Shown: positions 30,592 through 36,415, numbered from the stretch's first letter. The stretch: 64,000 nucleotides of DNA from Methylophilus rhizosphaerae (GCA_943370285.1 CALRQJ020000001.1:98276-162275), one strand, 5' to 3'. Notes: generated by a model not told the origin, from the letters alone. Made by a program: numbers and translations.

Positions 30592-30623
30592 TTTGGCACT
30601 CCACTGCTCCACCCCTATTTTTG
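30592..30623 (+). promoter_or_regulatory. Bacteroidota-type promoter candidate for tRNA-Gln
   Basis: TTTG (30592-30595) is followed 20 nt later by TATTTTTG (30616-30623, fits TAnnTTTG), about 30 nt upstream of the tRNA. Confidence 0.4.
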
Positions 30624-32309
30624 CACTCCCAAAAGCAATTTTGGAACAAGGATTGGCCTATAGTATAATGGTAGTACGACAGATTTTGGTTCTGTTTGTC
30701 TTGGTTCGAATCCAGGTAGGCCAACACTACTACCAAAAAGACAACTTTTAAAAAGGTTGTCTTTTTGTTTTTCAGCCGAAACCATTGATTCTACTGCTAT
30801 TTCTTTAAAAATGGAATTGACTTTGGCGGTTCGAACTACCCCATTTTCTTTATCGTATAGCATACCTTCAGGAAATACCAGATATTGTAATCGCTGCTTG
30901 TCAAAAAAATCAGCTAAAACCCACATCTGACATATGTTTTCAGCGATTTCCAAGCCTTTACTTATGCTTTTTTTAAGGTTCGAACTCAAATTTTCATTTT
31001 GTGAATTTTCTTGCAGCATTTCATCGATTTGAGCTTGATACTTTTTTGTGAATTTGGCATATTGTTCTGCTGTAATTTCATTCAAGACAAATCTTTCTTC
31101 TAATGCATGAAGGGTATTTTGGAGTTCCCCAATACGTTTATTATTTGCTTTTTTATCTACAGGATTTTGTTCTAAAAGGGTTGATAGCTTAGCCTCCAGT
31201 TTTCTTTTTATAGTATCTTTTTGGGTATTATCATATTCAAAGTTGGAAAGAATAGCTAAAAATTGGCTATTCAATTTTTTAGCATTGATATTTACTTTAG
31301 AACCTTTGTCTCTTGACTTGTAATAGTATATCTTTTTCTTCTTGTTGTAATAACCTGTAAATGGACTTTTATTTACCAAATCCTTCATAAAGACTTTCAG
31401 TGCTAATTCATCTTGATTATTCATTTTAGCAATCCCACTTCGAGGATTTTGGCTTCCAATATTATTGGCTTGTAAAAAAGTCTTCTCATCAATCAAAGGA
31501 GGATGCATTCCGATATTGACTTCATCGGGCAAAATGGAGGCAACTACATACCCGCAGTAAAATGGATTTGCTAATATCCAAGCTATGTTACGCAGAGAAA
31601 CTTTAAGCCCTTTTGTCGCCAGTTTCTCAATGATTTGCTGATTAGACATCTTACCGGATGCTTTCCATTGGAACGCCTTTTTGATTAACAACCCCTTCTC
31701 ATTAATCACATAGACGTGTTTGTCTGCTGTGGAGTGCTTGTTTTGATTATCATATCCAAGTGGTGTGCTATACGGCCAAAATCCCTTTCTAAGCATTGAT
31801 TTTGTGCCCGATATACTCTTATCCCTTCGCATATCATTATCCAACTTACTGATTAACATGTAAAGGTTTTCTTGAAAGTTACCTGTAGGTGTTGATGAAT
31901 CAACTTCCTGCGTAATTGCAACTATACGTACGCCCAATTTGCGCAAGTTTTCTAAGAGAAATATTCCATTAGCTCCAGAACGGGAGAAGCGATCATAACT
32001 GTATACCAATATGCCTGCTACAGTTTTATCTTTTTCAATATCCTTTAGCATCCTCTGAAACTCCCTTCGCTCATCATTCTTTGCTGACTCATAAGTACCA
32101 CCATATTTACTCTTAATAATCAAGTTACTTTTCAAAGCAAATTCATCAATTCTTTCAAATTGCCAAACAAGACTATTACCGTTTATCATTTGATCTTTTG
32201 TTGAAACACGATCATATGAGTAAAATATGTTACTTGTTCTTTGGCTTACAATAGTACTTGTTTTAGATACATGCTTTTTGATGAGTTCTTGAACATTATC
32301 CCGTTTCAT
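30615..32309 (-). CDS. Large serine recombinase (resolvase/invertase N-domain plus recombinase domain plus coiled-coil)
   Basis: Catalytic-serine motif YDRVSTKDQ, resolvase core (ILVYSYDRFSRS) and a recombinase domain (GFWPYSTPLGY). The last ~52 codons are the antisense of the tRNA-Gln terminator and the tRNA itself. Confidence 0.85.
   Translation of the reverse strand: MKRDNVQELIKKHVSKTSTIVSQRTSNIFYSYDRVSTKDQMINGNSLVWQFERIDEFALKSNLIIKSKYGGTYESAKNDERREFQRMLKDIEKDKTVAGILVYSYDRFSRSGANGIFLLENLRKLGVRIVAITQEVDSSTPTGNFQENLYMLISKLDNDMRRDKSISGTKSMLRKGFWPYSTPLGYDNQNKHSTADKHVYVINEKGLLIKKAFQWKASGKMSNQQIIEKLATKGLKVSLRNIAWILANPFYCGYVVASILPDEVNIGMHPPLIDEKTFLQANNIGSQNPRSGIAKMNNQDELALKVFMKDLVNKSPFTGYYNKKKKIYYYKSRDKGSKVNINAKKLNSQFLAILSNFEYDNTQKDTIKRKLEAKLSTLLEQNPVDKKANNKRIGELQNTLHALEERFVLNEITAEQYAKFTKKYQAQIDEMLQENSQNENLSSNLKKSISKGLEIAENICQMWVLADFFDKQRLQYLVFPEGMLYDKENGVVRTAKVNSIFKEIAVESMVSAEKQKDNLFKSCLFGSSVGLPGFEPRQTEPKSVVLPLYYRPILVPKLLLGVQK
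30654..30724 (+). tRNA. tRNA-Gln (anticodon UUG)
   Basis: Cloverleaf folded by hand. Acceptor TGGCCTA/TAGGCCA. D-stem GTAT/GTAC. Anticodon stem ACAGA/TCTGT with loop TTTTGGT. T-arm CTTGG-TTCGAAT-CCAGG. Discriminator A. No encoded CCA. Confidence 0.9.
30735..30772 (+). terminator. Rho-independent terminator after tRNA-Gln
   Basis: AAAAAGACAAC (30735-30745) pairs with GTTGTCTTTTT (30756-30766), followed by GTTTTT. Confidence 0.6.
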
Positions 32310-32463
32310 TTGGTGTTTGATTTAAATTTTCCTGTAATAAAATCGCAATGATGATATCGCAAAACACATCGATTTGTTCTTCGAGTTGTAATTCATCAAT
32401 GTTTTTTTCTACTGTATTAATCGCATTGTTCTTGTCTTTTTTAGTTTTTTTTAATTCAGACAT
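32296..32463 (-). CDS. Unannotated 55-aa ORF overlapping the recombinase start
   Basis: Hand translation gives MSELKKTKKDKNNAINTVEKNIDELQLEEQIDVFCDIIIAILLQENLNQTPNETG. Its stop lies 14 nt inside the recombinase gene. It is below the ORF-track length cutoff. Confidence 0.25.
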   Translation of the reverse strand: MSELKKTKKDKNNAINTVEKNIDELQLEEQIDVFCDIIIAILLQENLNQTPNETG

Positions 32464-32548
32464 TTCAATTAAAGCAAAGTATCGTCATCTCAAATGAAGG
32501 ATACCTGATAATTAATTGTGCCGTCTCAAACGGAAACTAGTATTTATA

Positions 32549-33478
32549 TTAATTTACTTTTTTTATTCGTGTAAAGGATAGAATATTATTATCTCTGGTA
32601 TGTAAATCCACCGATTCATAGTTTTTGAGCCCCAATATTTCTTTTATCTTCTTTGAATCTGCTTCTGATAATATACCCGATTTTTCAGCTTTTATGTCCT
32701 GAATATCTCCTTGTTTACTATTCTTGGTAACGATTATCTTTTTAATATTACTTTTCCTAATCTGACGTATCACTTCTAATTCACTATCGTTGAAAACCCC
32801 TGTCTTACTTAAAAAAGTTTCAGCTTCCTCTTGAACAATGAATTTTTTGATAAAAGAACTAATTGGAAGTAGTATATGCGGAACAGATACGTTAACAATA
32901 TTTTTTGATGTAGCATAGTCATTAGTTGCCAACTCATAAGTGTCAAATTTTCCGTCTTCATAGATAATAATACCTACTTCATGATTATTAATAAAACATC
33001 TTAAAACAAGTTGAAAAAAGTAGGTAATATCTGCATCTGGAACAGACATCCTGATAGGGTCATTTAAAATTGTATTAATTGCTTCTAATAACCTGAATTC
33101 ATCATTATTCAATGGCCGTTGCTTAGCAATAGAAGTGAGTATAGCCGCATTTTCTTGCAAAGTTTTTTTGCCTAATCCGTCTTTATATGCTCTTATAAAC
33201 AAAAATTCATGAAGTGCTTTCATGAGATTAAGCGAACAGCCAAATTTTCTCATTGACTCTAAAGTGCACAGCCATAAGTATTCGACAAATGATAAACTTA
33301 TCCACTTACGTTCATTCACCACCGTATTCAGTAAGCCTGCCATCTTCCAAGCATGAAACGTTTTTATGTCAATCCCTGTTTCCCTCACAGTCATTATTCT
33401 ATCCAATAATTTACCCTGGCTTATAGCTAATTCGATACTGGTAGGGCCACTTAATTCTGATGGTTTTATTAAAATCAT
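32549..33478 (-). CDS. Hypothetical protein with an N-terminal MerR/excisionase-like HTH
   Basis: MTVRETGIDIKTFHAWKMAGLL resembles the MerR-type HTH pattern. The remaining ~260 aa are unrecognised. The start is set at the internal ATG (33478), which leaves an 80-bp divergent promoter region. Confidence 0.5.
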   Translation of the reverse strand: MILIKPSELSGPTSIELAISQGKLLDRIMTVRETGIDIKTFHAWKMAGLLNTVVNERKWISLSFVEYLWLCTLESMRKFGCSLNLMKALHEFLFIRAYKDGLGKKTLQENAAILTSIAKQRPLNNDEFRLLEAINTILNDPIRMSVPDADITYFFQLVLRCFINNHEVGIIIYEDGKFDTYELATNDYATSKNIVNVSVPHILLPISSFIKKFIVQEEAETFLSKTGVFNDSELEVIRQIRKSNIKKIIVTKNSKQGDIQDIKAEKSGILSEADSKKIKEILGLKNYESVDLHTRDNNILSFTRIKKVN

Positions 33479-33558
33479 TTTTAGATTGATTTTTTGATAG
33501 CTATTTTTATTAAATTTGCTATCACAAAGATAATCTATCAATTTCAAAAACAAAGCAA

Positions 33559-33984
33559 ATGAAGAAAAAAATCAAAAAATCAGATGCTAAGGGTTTAATA
33601 GGCCGTGAATTGCGATTCTGCGAATATTGTGGCGACCCTTTACCCTTATTATCTAAAATAACACGGAAACACTGTGAATATAGCGCAGTTAATGGCGTAA
33701 TAAAAGACTGCAAAACCGCAAAGGCAAGACAAAATGACAAAGAGGAAAGAGAATTTTTCCAAAAACTAAAGAGCACCATTAAAGAGATCGACGGCAGAAT
33801 TAGGAAGATGCTGATCGAAAAAGGAAACTTAGTTGACTTACAGGATTTAGAAGCTTATGACATTCACTTAAATAAAGCACTGCATCAAGATTTTAAAACG
33901 GATGGTCAGTTAATCTGTACTTATATCAACTACATTATTCATGGAAACCCGATTACCGAAAAATTTCAAATTAAACCATTATGA
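33559..33984 (+). CDS. Hypothetical Cys-rich (zinc-ribbon-like) protein
   Basis: 141 aa, basic N-terminus, CEYC...C...C cysteine pattern. No recognised family. Confidence 0.4.
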   Translation: MKKKIKKSDAKGLIGRELRFCEYCGDPLPLLSKITRKHCEYSAVNGVIKDCKTAKARQNDKEEREFFQKLKSTIKEIDGRIRKMLIEKGNLVDLQDLEAYDIHLNKALHQDFKTDGQLICTYINYIIHGNPITEKFQIKPL

Positions 33985-34283
33985 CAGAGAACGCTAAATT
34001 ATTGGCAACAATGAAACAACTCAATATGAGCAACCAATACAAGCAGCTTGCGTATGTTTGTATTGGCGTAACACTAACAGTATCATTAACTGCTATCGGC
34101 TTATATTATTACAATATAAATTTGAAAAAGAAATTCAAAGCTAAATCTGAGCGTGTCAGAGAAAGTTTTGCCGATATTACTAATAGTCAATTGGATGAAA
34201 TTTTAAAACTCAAACAGCAAATACGAGATATAAAACAACCAGATCGTGAAAAAACAAAAGATAATTCACCTAATCAAGAATAA
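33981..34283 (+). CDS. Hypothetical single-pass membrane / coiled-coil protein
   Basis: 100 aa. ATGA overlap with the upstream ORF. TM segment LAYVCIGVTLTVSLTAIGLYYY followed by a charged helical tail. Confidence 0.4.
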   Translation: MTENAKLLATMKQLNMSNQYKQLAYVCIGVTLTVSLTAIGLYYYNINLKKKFKAKSERVRESFADITNSQLDEILKLKQQIRDIKQPDREKTKDNSPNQE

Positions 34284-34628
34284 CTGAGCGTAAATATATT
34301 ACTCAGCTTGCTGCTTACAACAAGGGACATTGCTACGCAGTAATGTCTATACTTTAATCTGCCCTTTTTTTTCTAAATAAATTACTGACTAAGACACCAA
34401 AGGTTTTTTGCTCCTATTTCGTCTACTAAAATTGTACCCCAAGCCTAACCTAGTAGGTTTATACATGTCTCTATTTTAAATCATCTTTCAGCTGTAATCT
34501 TATTCCGTATAATTATGATGTATTAAGCTTTGCCTAATTATTTTTAAAAATATCATTTAACCTAGTATTTTAAAACTATCTCTAGTAAAAACTGGAAGAT
34601 GATTGAAATAAAATCGTCTCTAAATGGT

Positions 34629-34702
34629 TCACGTGAAATCTCGTTTAATCTCGTGATATCTCTCTATTTCACGAGAAATCTCCGTAATTCTCGAGAAATC
34701 AC
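34629..34702. repeat. Four iteron-like 14-bp repeats at exact 20-bp phasing
   Basis: TCACGTGAAATCTC (34629), TCTCGTGATATCTC (34649), TCACGAGAAATCTC (34669), TCTCGAGAAATCAC (34689). Consensus TCWCGWGAAATCTC. Confidence 0.8.
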
Positions 34703-35110
34703 GGTAAAAGAGGTAAAAAATTTTTGCTGAGATTCTATGTTTTTCTTGCACTGTCTACACGAATATTCCTCTTCCAAATGATGATTTATCTGTGTCGTAA
34801 TCGCGGATGATACGTTGAGGTATTTATCAATACCAAAAGGGTTTTTCAATTCCATTTGCGACCAGTGAAATAACGGATTGCGTACCAACTGTCGCATACT
34901 GCCCTGATTCCAATAAAAAATTATCGTGGCTGGATATTTTTGGAGAACATCTTTCTAGGGAACAGTTACGAAATGTTGATTAAAATTTACGGTTGAATTA
35001 TTTGTAACTGAAATTTCCACTTTATTTTCAACCTGTGCCAAAACAGTAAATGCAAAGAAATAAAATGACAGAAAAAAGATACTCTTTATGAATTTTATTT
35101 TAATCTTCAT
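34664..35110 (-). pseudogene. Decayed chimeric reading frame: DUF4861-like N-terminus (in-frame TAG) fused to an internal glucuronate isomerase (uxaC) fragment
   Basis: The hand translation MKIKIKFIKSIFFLSFYFFAFTVLAQVENKVEISVTNNSTVNFNQHFVTVP*KDVLQKY... parallels the N-terminus of the DUF4861 gene at 40432..41565. Downstream, RNPLFHWSQMELKNPFGIDKYL...EEYSCRQ matches the conserved UxaC block GNPLYHWTHLELRRPFGI...FSARG. Confidence 0.45.
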
Positions 35111-35116
35111 AATTTA

Positions 35117-36415
35117 TCAGTAATCAATCTTTTTTAATTTAGGAACCAGGAAATGCATAATGGCCCATGCCAGCAAATAAGCTAAACCACAAACAATAAA
35201 CATAATGAAATAGCCCGCATCCTTTTCGCCAATTGATTTGTAGTAATCAAATAATTTACCTGCGCCCCTGGCAAATAATATTCCGCCAATGGCGCCAAAC
35301 ATACCACCAATACCGGTAACAGATGCTGTTGCATTTTTTGGAAACATATCACTTACTGTAGTAAAAATATTTGAACTCCAGGCCTGGTGTGAGCCCATGG
35401 CACAACCTATTACAATAACTGCCAGCCACATGTTAAAGCTGCCTAGGTATTGTGCAAATAAAACCGGAAGAATACTGATGGCAAAAATCAGCATAGCTGT
35501 TTTACGGGCTTTAAAAACCGGCCAGCCTTTTTTAATAAACCACATGGGCAGCCATCCGCCAAATACACTGCCAATAGTGGATAATGTATAAGCCAATGCC
35601 AAAGGCAAAGATTTTGCAGTACCTAATAAACCATATTGTTTTTCTAAAAAATCGGGCAACCAGAAAAGATAAAACCACCAAACAGGGTCGGTTAAAAACT
35701 TACCAACCGCAAATGCCCAGGTTTGTTTATAGGTTAATAATTTGGTCCAGGATATAGTTTTAGTAACACCATGTTCATCTTGTTCATCTTCGGGATCGCT
35801 ATGGATAAAATCTAACTCTGCCTGTGATAATTTTTTATGTTTTTTAGGTACTTCATATAAAACAAACCAGAAAATCAACCAGATAAAACCAACCAAACCG
35901 GTTAAAATAAATGCCCACTTCCATCCCCATAATTCAGCGATAGCAGGTACGGTAAGAGGCGCTATAATGGCTCCAATATTTGCACCCGAATTGAAAATGC
36001 CTGTTGCAAAAGCTCGCTCTTTTTTGGGAAACCATTCTGCAGTTGTTTTAATAGCAGCAGGGAAATTACCCGATTCGGTAAAACCTAAAGCACCACGAGC
36101 AACCAAAAACCCAATTGTATTTGTAACAAAACCATGTGCAATAGCCGCTACACTCCACAAAGCGGTTGCCAACGCATAGCCTATCTTTGTACCAAGTTTA
36201 TCTATCAACCTTCCGGCACCTAAAAAACCAATTGCATAACAAATCTGAAAGGCAATAACAATATTGGCATAATCTGTTTCTGTCCAATTAAACTCCTTGG
36301 TTAGAGGCGACTTTAAAATGGCAATAACCGCCCTGTCGAGATAATTAATAGTGGTTGCAAAGAATACCATTGCGCAAATCGTCCACCTGTATTTTCCTAT
36401 AGCTTGCTGGTTCAT
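35117..36415 (-). CDS. exuT: MFS hexuronate transporter (ExuT-like)
   Basis: 432 aa, 12 TM segments. N-terminus ...YRWTICAMVFFATTINYLDRAVIAI typical of ExuT/ACS-family transporters. Sits in a uronate-catabolic context. Confidence 0.7.
   Translation of the reverse strand: MNQQAIGKYRWTICAMVFFATTINYLDRAVIAILKSPLTKEFNWTETDYANIVIAFQICYAIGFLGAGRLIDKLGTKIGYALATALWSVAAIAHGFVTNTIGFLVARGALGFTESGNFPAAIKTTAEWFPKKERAFATGIFNSGANIGAIIAPLTVPAIAELWGWKWAFILTGLVGFIWLIFWFVLYEVPKKHKKLSQAELDFIHSDPEDEQDEHGVTKTISWTKLLTYKQTWAFAVGKFLTDPVWWFYLFWLPDFLEKQYGLLGTAKSLPLALAYTLSTIGSVFGGWLPMWFIKKGWPVFKARKTAMLIFAISILPVLFAQYLGSFNMWLAVIVIGCAMGSHQAWSSNIFTTVSDMFPKNATASVTGIGGMFGAIGGILFARGAGKLFDYYKSIGEKDAGYFIMFIVCGLAYLLAWAIMHFLVPKLKKIDY

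Follow-up and report, generated by a model that had tools for sequence, protein, structure and literature searches.

What is the function of a strictly phased repeat array at one end of a small integrated element, and which protein binds to it? The window, i.e., the whole stretch of 64,000 nucleotides that was analysed, contains such an array on the plus strand at 34628..34707. It is made up of four 14-mers (TCWCGWGAWATCWC) that start at 34629, 34649, 34669 and 34689: TCACGTGAAATCTC (34629-34642), TCTCGTGATATCTC (34649-34662), TCACGAGAAATCTC (34669-34682) and TCTCGAGAAATCAC (34689-34702). A preliminary description of this DNA reported four 14-bp repeats at an exact 20-bp spacing with the hexamer cores CACGTG, CTCGTG, CACGAG and CTCGAG, and a check of the sequence returned the same positions and the same cores. 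Tandem Repeats Finder assigns periods of 20 (3.7 copies) and 10 to the array. Each unit is composed of a palindromic or nearly palindromic 10-mer, TTCWCGWGAA, and of ATCWC, which extends it asymmetrically. At the intervening 10-bp positions there are weaker WTCWC half-units, which is why the array is delimited as 34628-34707. The CG-step centres of the four sites lie at 34632/3, 34652/3, 34672/3 and 34692/3, and since the steps measure exactly 20 bp, proteins bound to these sites would be placed roughly on one side of the helix. The units are also directional, with a GAAAWY extension that points toward the element end in the window as well as in two relatives, L035 and L067.

The array is real, selected and element-specific. 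When at most one mismatch is allowed, the degenerate pattern has five matches in the window against 0.10 expected, and any of 100 shuffles contains one at most. Throughout the 3.85-Mb genome, there are four exact matches, all of them at the array, and six scattered singletons with one mismatch, and a reversed control pattern yields a single match in the same 3.85 Mb. Self-matching at a lag of 20 reaches 0.6 or more in only two 70-bp segments of the genome, namely the window array and the array of a paralogous element on contig 17. The window array is the most 20-bp-periodic stretch of the genome, tied with the equivalent site of this paralogue. That the motif might be a generic repeat spread over the genome, which had been named as a reason to abandon the preliminary description, is not what was found, as both the exact motif and the lag-20 periodicity are restricted to element arrays. 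Moreover, the array is conserved above its surroundings. Compared to L018, a metagenomic relative with flanks that are 96% identical to the window genome and an element copy that is 91% identical, the array is 93.8% identical against 83-85.5% for the neighbouring non-coding DNA, and 54 of the 56 bases of the 14-mers match, with both changes staying within the consensus. A role for RNA or single-strand structure was rejected: an Rfam search of the array region and the spacer gave no match, and the single-stranded DNA fold of the array is no better than that of shuffled sequences (z = -0.69). The 77-aa ORF that overlaps the array (34664-34897) was likewise rejected as a gene, since the frame does not stay open in L018; Pfam matches it to UxaC only over the part outside the element. 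A sigma-70-type scan, using a consensus that fits Bacteroidota poorly, detected no promoter-like site at or just outside the array.

The carrier of the array is an AT-rich insert of 4.04 kb (30726-34763) with five genes, located directly behind its host target, a tRNA-Gln(ttg) gene (30654..30724, plus strand). The linkage between cphA and this tRNA-Gln is kept in 70 of 80 metagenomic relatives without the element. On the minus strand, an operon begins with the gene of a 309-aa protein (32549..33478) and ends with the gene of a large serine recombinase (30615..32309), in which Pfam recognises Resolvase and Recombinase domains. The slot between them is taken by the gene of a 55-aa helical peptide (32296..32463), and in relatives by a gene of 43-69 aa. 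With both Pfam domains in a protein of ~550 aa, sharp boundaries and no flanking direct repeats, the insert has the properties of an integrative element of the large-serine-recombinase type. The recombinase frame meets no stop codon within the element and runs antisense through a hairpin and tRNA-Gln (30615-30776); the C-terminal tail of the recombinase would differ between the integrated and the excised state. For the 309-aa protein, the predicted fold (pLDDT 76) contains a MerR-type winged helix-turn-helix, with a match to the MerR family over the N-terminal 75-130 residues only. The protein has no family match, and its remainder corresponds to no known fold.

On the plus strand, two small genes follow each other. 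The first encodes p141 (33559..33984), an orphan zinc-ribbon protein with cysteines C21, C24, C39 and C51, for which a model (pLDDT 82.5) predicts a four-Cys zinc ribbon, a 38-residue helix and a small beta domain. p141 has no fold match in the PDB, no Pfam family and no recognisable DNA-binding family. The second gene (33981..34283), the start of which overlaps the p141 stop (ATGA), encodes p100, a membrane coiled-coil protein in which a single predicted transmembrane helix is followed by what is, by eye, a charged coiled coil. A p100-like gene lies downstream of p141 in every locus examined. The spacer between the p100 stop and the array (34284..34627) is free of ORFs. It includes hairpins after p100 (~34276-34370) and an AT-rich stretch with 83-85% conservation in L018; ~190 bp of conserved AT-rich DNA adjoin the array. 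No DnaA box (TTATCCACA-like, at most one mismatch) is present in 34284-34763, and searches of the gene content of the element with Pfam, NCBIfam and PHROGs revealed no helicase, primase, Rep family or NTPase. Beyond the element, the host gene exuT (35117-36415, minus strand) is transcribed toward the array end.

The element belongs to a small family. The paralogous element of the same genome (L016, contig 17) is inserted behind tRNA-Leu(taa); protein identities to the window element are 40%, 37%, 24% and 27%. Among 5.8 billion proteins, the 309-aa family comprises 35 clusters, found only in Chitinophagaceae, Chitinophagales and Bacteroidota MAGs, with 12 of 401 family genomes positive. Of the 28 loci in which the contig includes the 3′ end of the recombinase gene, 26 have this end against the 3′ end of a tRNA gene, which the recombinase frame enters in antisense orientation (window, L016, L018, L021, L024, L027, L029-L032, L036, L037, L059-L071 and L166). 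Twelve different anticodons are represented, namely those of Gln, Pro (three), Leu (four), Met, Arg (two) and Glu. These insertion sites suggest that the recombinase is directed at the 3′ tip of tRNA genes at large. A search at the DNA level in 40 related genomes revealed no relatives, the genus being a singleton in the collection, and no description of the element family was found in the published literature. A link with phages was considered and dropped, as viral contigs contain no p141 relatives. For the subfamily with an 84-aa ORF, no alignment of the distal ends was obtained. Several members show peculiarities of their own. In L037 (3628-4069), the 3′ 50 nt of tRNA-Pro(ggg) occur twice with a GIY-YIG gene in between, and the copy beside the recombinase has a replaced D-arm. 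A 308-aa MerR-like homologue (50% identity) is present in a different element (L038:4380-6500, and L039), beside the 3′ end of an apparent tmRNA gene and followed by an HTH_17 gene, with no adjacent serine recombinase. In some members, cargo lies between the core genes and the distal end, e.g., type I restriction-modification genes according to Pfam (L040:1-4700), three large ORFs of 388, 522 and 842 aa that by eye may be of the same kind (L062:7379-12634), and a Y-family polymerase-like gene with an IMS domain (L031:3583-5821). In the window genome, tRNA-Leu(caa) adjoins 60 C-terminal residues of a third recombinase (G000:C18:5524-5755, L017), probably a remnant of another element.

Where the element ends can be deduced from comparison to its relatives. 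The homology between the window and L018 extends from 30702 to 34763. At the left end (30726..30767, plus strand), the tRNA discriminator plus C is followed by ACTACTACC and by a hairpin with a 12-bp stem (30734-30767). The sequence shared on the tRNA side is ACTAYTACC plus this hairpin, and the junction is identical in L018 and L037, behind different tRNAs; this segment would be the P′ arm. At the other side, the segment from the array to the right end (34708..34763, plus strand), which carries GCACTGTCTACACGAA at 34748-34763, would correspond to the P arm of the attachment site. The array is positioned 56-135 bp inside the integrase-distal end at 34763, but the DNA to the right of the element differs from what natively follows tRNA-Gln, which leaves the exact crossover point, and with it the distance between array and crossover, uncertain. 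In L030 and L032, element homology starts ~40 bp outside their array. The array is found at the element terminus whether the spacer to p100 measures 50 bp or more than 450 bp, and no copy of the motif occurs on the recombinase-proximal arm or in the divergent promoter of the element. The array is therefore placed as an attP-arm site would be, on one arm, within ~150 bp of the crossover and at the integrase-distal end. In the window genome, scars in which GAACGCWCTGTWKCCATCCCGA is joined to CACTATTAC and the left-end hairpin are found after tRNA-Pro(ggg) (G000:C2:138475-138620, 148570-148640, 150070-150140 and 150620-150670), with ~12 kb of other genes between them. What precedes the left-end hairpin in these scars is a directly fused GCACTGT...CCCGA segment, and the right end of the element shares the motif GCACTGT...CGA. 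They look, from their sequence, like attP-type or tandem junctions from earlier elements, and their structure supports both boundaries of the element.

No direct repeat of the tRNA was found at the far end of the element; the lack of a long flanking direct repeat is the expectation for a serine recombinase. The sequence TGTTTTTC was tried as a shared att core and rejected, because the homology with L018 extends past both of its copies, which are thus no boundaries. The exact empty tRNA-Gln site was not found among metagenomes searched via cphA, where the relatives are 79-84% identical and have the native tRNA-Gln terminator. Directly beyond the right end, 34764-34929 contains an isolated internal fragment of uxaC of 157 bp (~residues 91-142). 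The equivalent in L018 is an unrelated sequence of ~390 bp, and from 34930 on, both genomes have the exuT flank in common; there is an intact copy of uxaC at G000:C4:1766-3157. When window 30726-34763 is compared to L018 and to G000:C2:134295-138474, the exuT-side flank is common to both genomes, and the other flank in L018 is tRNA-Pro(ggg)/OsmC/HgmA, not tRNA-Gln/cphA. As only one flank is shared, a genome rearrangement breakpoint falls exactly at the tRNA-side end of the element. Additionally, metagenome contigs break at or just inside the distal end or the array (L036:1, which equals L035:3246, L021:1 and L022:1), as would be expected if populations hold more than one junction form.

Whether the array is conserved next to homologous recombinases had been posed as a test in the preliminary description. 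Arrays do recur at the same position in the paralogue and in relatives from Chitinophagaceae. This is the case in a subset of the homologous elements only, since at least 13 elements with both recombinase and MerR-like protein lack it. The half-site TTCNCG/CGNGAA is repeated at a 10-, 20- or 30-bp phase, and the CGNGAA core is common to most motif classes. L018 has the array of the window. Four copies of GTTCNNGAAC at 20-bp steps make up the array of L016, and CCGTTCNNGAACGG is repeated at 20-bp steps in L059. In L035, a relative with 60% identity, TTCWCGWGA is kept at exact 20-bp steps (CG centres at 3159.5, 3179.5, 3199.5 and 3219.5, and an additional one at 3149.5), and the spacers have diverged. 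Steps of 10 bp separate the five AATCAYGTGA units of L029, steps of 30 bp the TCGTGAATTCAC units of L030 and L032, and in L067 TTCACGTGAA recurs at steps of 20, 20, 10 and so on. L070 has seven TTCACGTGA units in a 10-bp phase, L167 has seven TTAYGTGGTT units, and the arrays of L071 and L166 are degenerate or consist of two units. The TTCACGTGAA-type cluster of L169 is situated between p100 and the following host gene. Nothing comparable was revealed outside the arrays by strict phased k-mer scans of loci of 8-16 kb, autocorrelation and counts of half-site clusters; an apparent half-site cluster in L031 (12798-12855) proved to be an unrelated 8-bp microsatellite (TTCACGAT/TTCACGCT). The only locus without p141 that has a phased array is L028, where four copies of a different motif, TTTACAGGTG, are arranged at 10-bp steps in the divergent promoter beside an RHH-like gene. 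Relatives that lack p141 encode other small, putatively DNA-binding proteins in the slot divergent from the 309-aa gene. Those of L061, L066 and L028 are RHH-like, and L063 and L065 have different CxxC zinc-ribbon proteins there.

To identify the candidate binder, the distribution of the arrays can be compared to that of the proteins. Clear arrays are present in 12 of 17 loci with p141, to which two weak ones can be added, and in one of the 15 loci that have recombinase and 309-aa protein without p141 (Fisher p = 3e-4, or 1.7e-3 with near-identical lineages collapsed, in a sample that is small and phylogenetically structured). Half-site clusters are confined to the arrays of loci with p141. 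Three tyrosine-integrase elements with a p141-like gene (L164, L165 and L168) have no array. The MerR-like HTH protein and the recombinase, which the preliminary description put forward as the obvious binders, are both found in the at least 13 elements that lack the array. For the MerR-like protein, there is the further objection that recognition helix and motif class do not go together. The helix of the window (DIKTFHAWK) is almost the same as that of the paralogous element (DSKTFHYWK), yet their motifs differ, and the helix of L067 (GSKLINDWT) differs from that of the window, yet their motif is the same. The window shares the TTCACGTGAA motif class with L067, L070 and L071, to which its p141 is 33-34% and its MerR-like protein 23-26% identical. 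With L016 and L059, which have a different motif, the identities are 24-25% for p141 and 37-38% for the MerR-like protein, and the recognition helices are near-identical. Moreover, the basic patch after the fourth Cys of p141 differs with the motif class, being CKTAKAR-like for CGTGAA and C(R/K)R(K/R) for GTTC.

Elements with a tyrosine integrase, located beside tRNA-Lys, additionally contain the p141-p100 pair (gene order Int-X-HTH_17-p141-p100). L169 has the HTH_17-p141-p100 layout as well, with the integrase off the contig and neither the serine recombinase nor the 309-aa protein detected on the contig. Relatives of p141 are nearly all stand-alone proteins of ~135-150 aa, and a search for informative domain fusions among the 126 representatives yielded none. 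Co-occurrence and co-variation with the motif make p141 the best candidate binder, and its proposed role rests on both, since p141 matches no DNA-binding family or fold. As far as the sequences of these loci can tell, motif class tracks p141 and not the MerR-like helix, and the array is independent of the recombinase and the MerR-like protein. The preliminary description thus described the kind of feature correctly, i.e., a phased array of sites of the protein-binding type on one face of the DNA near the end of a mobile element, which is borne out here, and probably assigned the wrong proteins to it.

The best explanation, to which we give a probability of about one half, is that the array is a docking array for p141 beside the P arm of the attachment site. 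It would consist of phased, directional binding sites for an element-encoded protein, most likely p141, the gene of which lies together with that of p100 345 bp upstream of the array and points toward it. Dimers of p141 would fill the palindromic units cooperatively, so that a higher-order complex assembles beside the recombination site, possibly held at the membrane by p100. Excision would turn the array end into the P arm of the attachment site, and the complex might act on this end, e.g., in the control of excision and integration or in the handling of the excised circle. We infer p141 binding, p100 tethering and the consequence for recombination. In phage lambda, the P arm, which lies at the int-distal end of the prophage, contains the Xis sites at a distance of tens of bp from the core. 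Similarly, the target of RdfS is a 40-bp stretch within attP, and the protein forms oligomers along the DNA (PMC11963761). The terminus-bound, one-armed and directional nature of the array and its Xis-like position favour an attachment-arm role. Other observations speak against a role in recombination only. As many relatives do without the array, which was absent from at least 13 homologous elements and hence does not accompany every cognate recombination system, it is not essential for recombination. To our knowledge, characterised large serine integrases need no accessory DNA sites. Because elements with serine and with tyrosine integrases both use the module, its function would be independent of the recombination chemistry. 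We know of no precedent for a membrane partner in the control of recombination directionality. A wider and more doubtful proposal is that the array, together with p141 and p100, makes up a portable DNA-anchoring module of three parts that is swapped among tRNA-linked serine- and tyrosine-integrase elements. In such a module, the zinc-ribbon adaptor would coat a centromere-like array at the tip of the element, and the single-pass p100 would hold the complex at the membrane. If true, this would amount to NTPase-free tethering or positioning of excised circles, or to gating of the attachment site.

Docking of p141 has to be weighed against other functions of phased repeats. The array and the AT-rich stretch could be the origin of the excised circle, with replication iterons bound by the 309-aa protein or p141 as initiator. 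Four direct repeats about two helical turns apart beside ~190 bp of conserved AT-rich DNA would suit such an origin, as would a module that is independent of the recombinase type and a motif that is element-specific and varies among elements as iterons do. However, neither candidate initiator has a Rep-type fold, no helicase, primase or Rep family is encoded, and 34284-34763 is devoid of a DnaA box. The array lies at the terminus instead of at a candidate initiator gene, there is no promoter copy of the motif for autoregulation, and most relatives lack the array. Iterons are usually spaced at ~22 bp, and not at the 10, 20 or 30 bp seen here. An origin is therefore rather unlikely, and less likely than docking of p141. 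The sub-terminal position on one arm only would also be suitable for arm-type or accessory sites of the serine recombinase or the 309-aa MerR-like protein, comparable to res sites II/III or to IS607. The MerR-type domain is supported by the predicted fold, the 309-aa gene is co-transcribed with the recombinase gene, and the 309-aa helix is fairly conserved, as is the CGNGAA core in most motif classes. In the IS607 family, moreover, a transposase domain coats multiple sub-terminal repeats (PMC6188088). Such sites are nevertheless unlikely here, given that at least 13 elements have both proteins and no array, and that motif class is linked neither to the MerR-like helix nor to the overall identity of the 309-aa protein. 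In addition, L169 has a motif cluster on a contig with neither protein detected, and the recombinase-proximal arm contains no copies of the motif.

A transcriptional device, i.e., an operator array for p141, or a roadblock or insulator that stops transcription across the element boundary, would have to act from a position 345 bp downstream of the p141-p100 operon, past its hairpins and at no promoter. Phased tandem sites are common operators, the exuT operon reads toward the array, and the array of L028, in a divergent promoter beside an RHH-like gene, is like an ordinary operator. The divergent promoter of the window element, however, is free of the motif, and the sigma-70 consensus, with its poor fit for Bacteroidota, finds no promoter-like site at or near the array, which makes this function improbable. 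Finally, the region is non-coding and AT-rich, and with the overlapping ORF being spurious, a chance or decaying repeat without function might be suspected. It is highly improbable in view of the pattern counts and the genome-wide lag-20 statistics, the conservation of the array above its flanks in the comparison to L018, and the recurrence of arrays in elements with proteins that are only 23-40% identical. The probability left over from these readings goes to other explanations.

Among known systems, the arrays bound by recombination directionality factors are in several respects similar to the array described here. Those of lambda Xis (X1-X1.5-X2), mycobacteriophage L5 Xis and ICEMlSym RdfS are likewise helically phased, at a distance of tens of bp from the crossover and on the arm that becomes the integrase-distal one upon integration (PMC11963761). 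They are bound cooperatively by a small element-encoded protein, as is proposed for p141. Their binder is a winged-helix protein, whereas the candidate here is a zinc-ribbon protein with a membrane partner. The recombinase is of the large serine type, of which the known representatives use protein-binding factors and no accessory DNA, and many sister elements have no array. Plasmid iterons, such as those of P1, F, R6K, RK2 and pPS10, consist likewise of three to seven direct repeats about two turns apart with an AT-rich neighbour and are replicon-specific. In contrast to these, the array is not accompanied by a Rep-like protein or DnaA box, its spacing is exactly 10, 20 or 30 bp, its palindromes are short, and it is tied to the terminus.

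Centromeres of type II and III partition systems offer another comparison. The parC of pSK41 has four 20-bp repeats bound by ParR; other examples are R1 parC, and tubC, which is bound by TubR. Four tandem units of 20 bp with a 10-bp sub-structure are found here as well. In these systems, a small dimeric adaptor links the DNA to its partner, a role for which p141 is a candidate only. Unlike them, the element encodes no ParM, TubZ or ParA NTPase, the partner would be a small membrane coiled coil, the array is not upstream of the operon, and the element is integrative. The sub-terminal repeats of IS607 (PMC6188088) and the res sites II/III also represent multiple phased sub-terminal sites of serine-recombinase elements, where they nucleate a filament or a synaptic complex. 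There, the recombinase itself binds, at both ends or res copies, whereas here the array is restricted to one end and its presence follows p141. Unlike in IS607, where a MerR-like DNA-binding domain is N-terminal, the recombinase has an N-terminal catalytic domain in the large-serine-recombinase layout. The difference from the arm sites of heterobivalent tyrosine integrases is that the recombinase is a serine recombinase and that the sites are on one arm only. RacA, which has a DNA-binding domain and a long coiled coil, is paired with DivIVA, a membrane-associated coiled coil, and recognises short inverted-repeat sites. p141 and p100 may form a similar pair without homology, at the scale of an 80-bp array and a 4-kb element, as judged from genes and sequence. 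From the predicted structures, a possible anchoring or centromere-like role for p141 and p100 is attractive.

Phased sub-terminal repeats as such are of a known kind, occurring in transposons, phage attachment sites, iterons and centromeres. The carrier appears to be undescribed, being a compact family of ~4 kb when free of cargo, with a large serine recombinase at the 3′ tip of many tRNA genes. An array that tracks an orphan zinc-ribbon protein and its membrane partner instead of the recombinase also appears to be undescribed, as does the spread of p141-p100 to tyrosine-integrase elements, with a half-site cluster on L169. If p141 binds the array, 80 bp of DNA and two small proteins would constitute a tractable system, offering a way to ask how integrative elements mark and handle one of their ends. 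It would, moreover, show whether serine integrases can come under DNA-architectural control.
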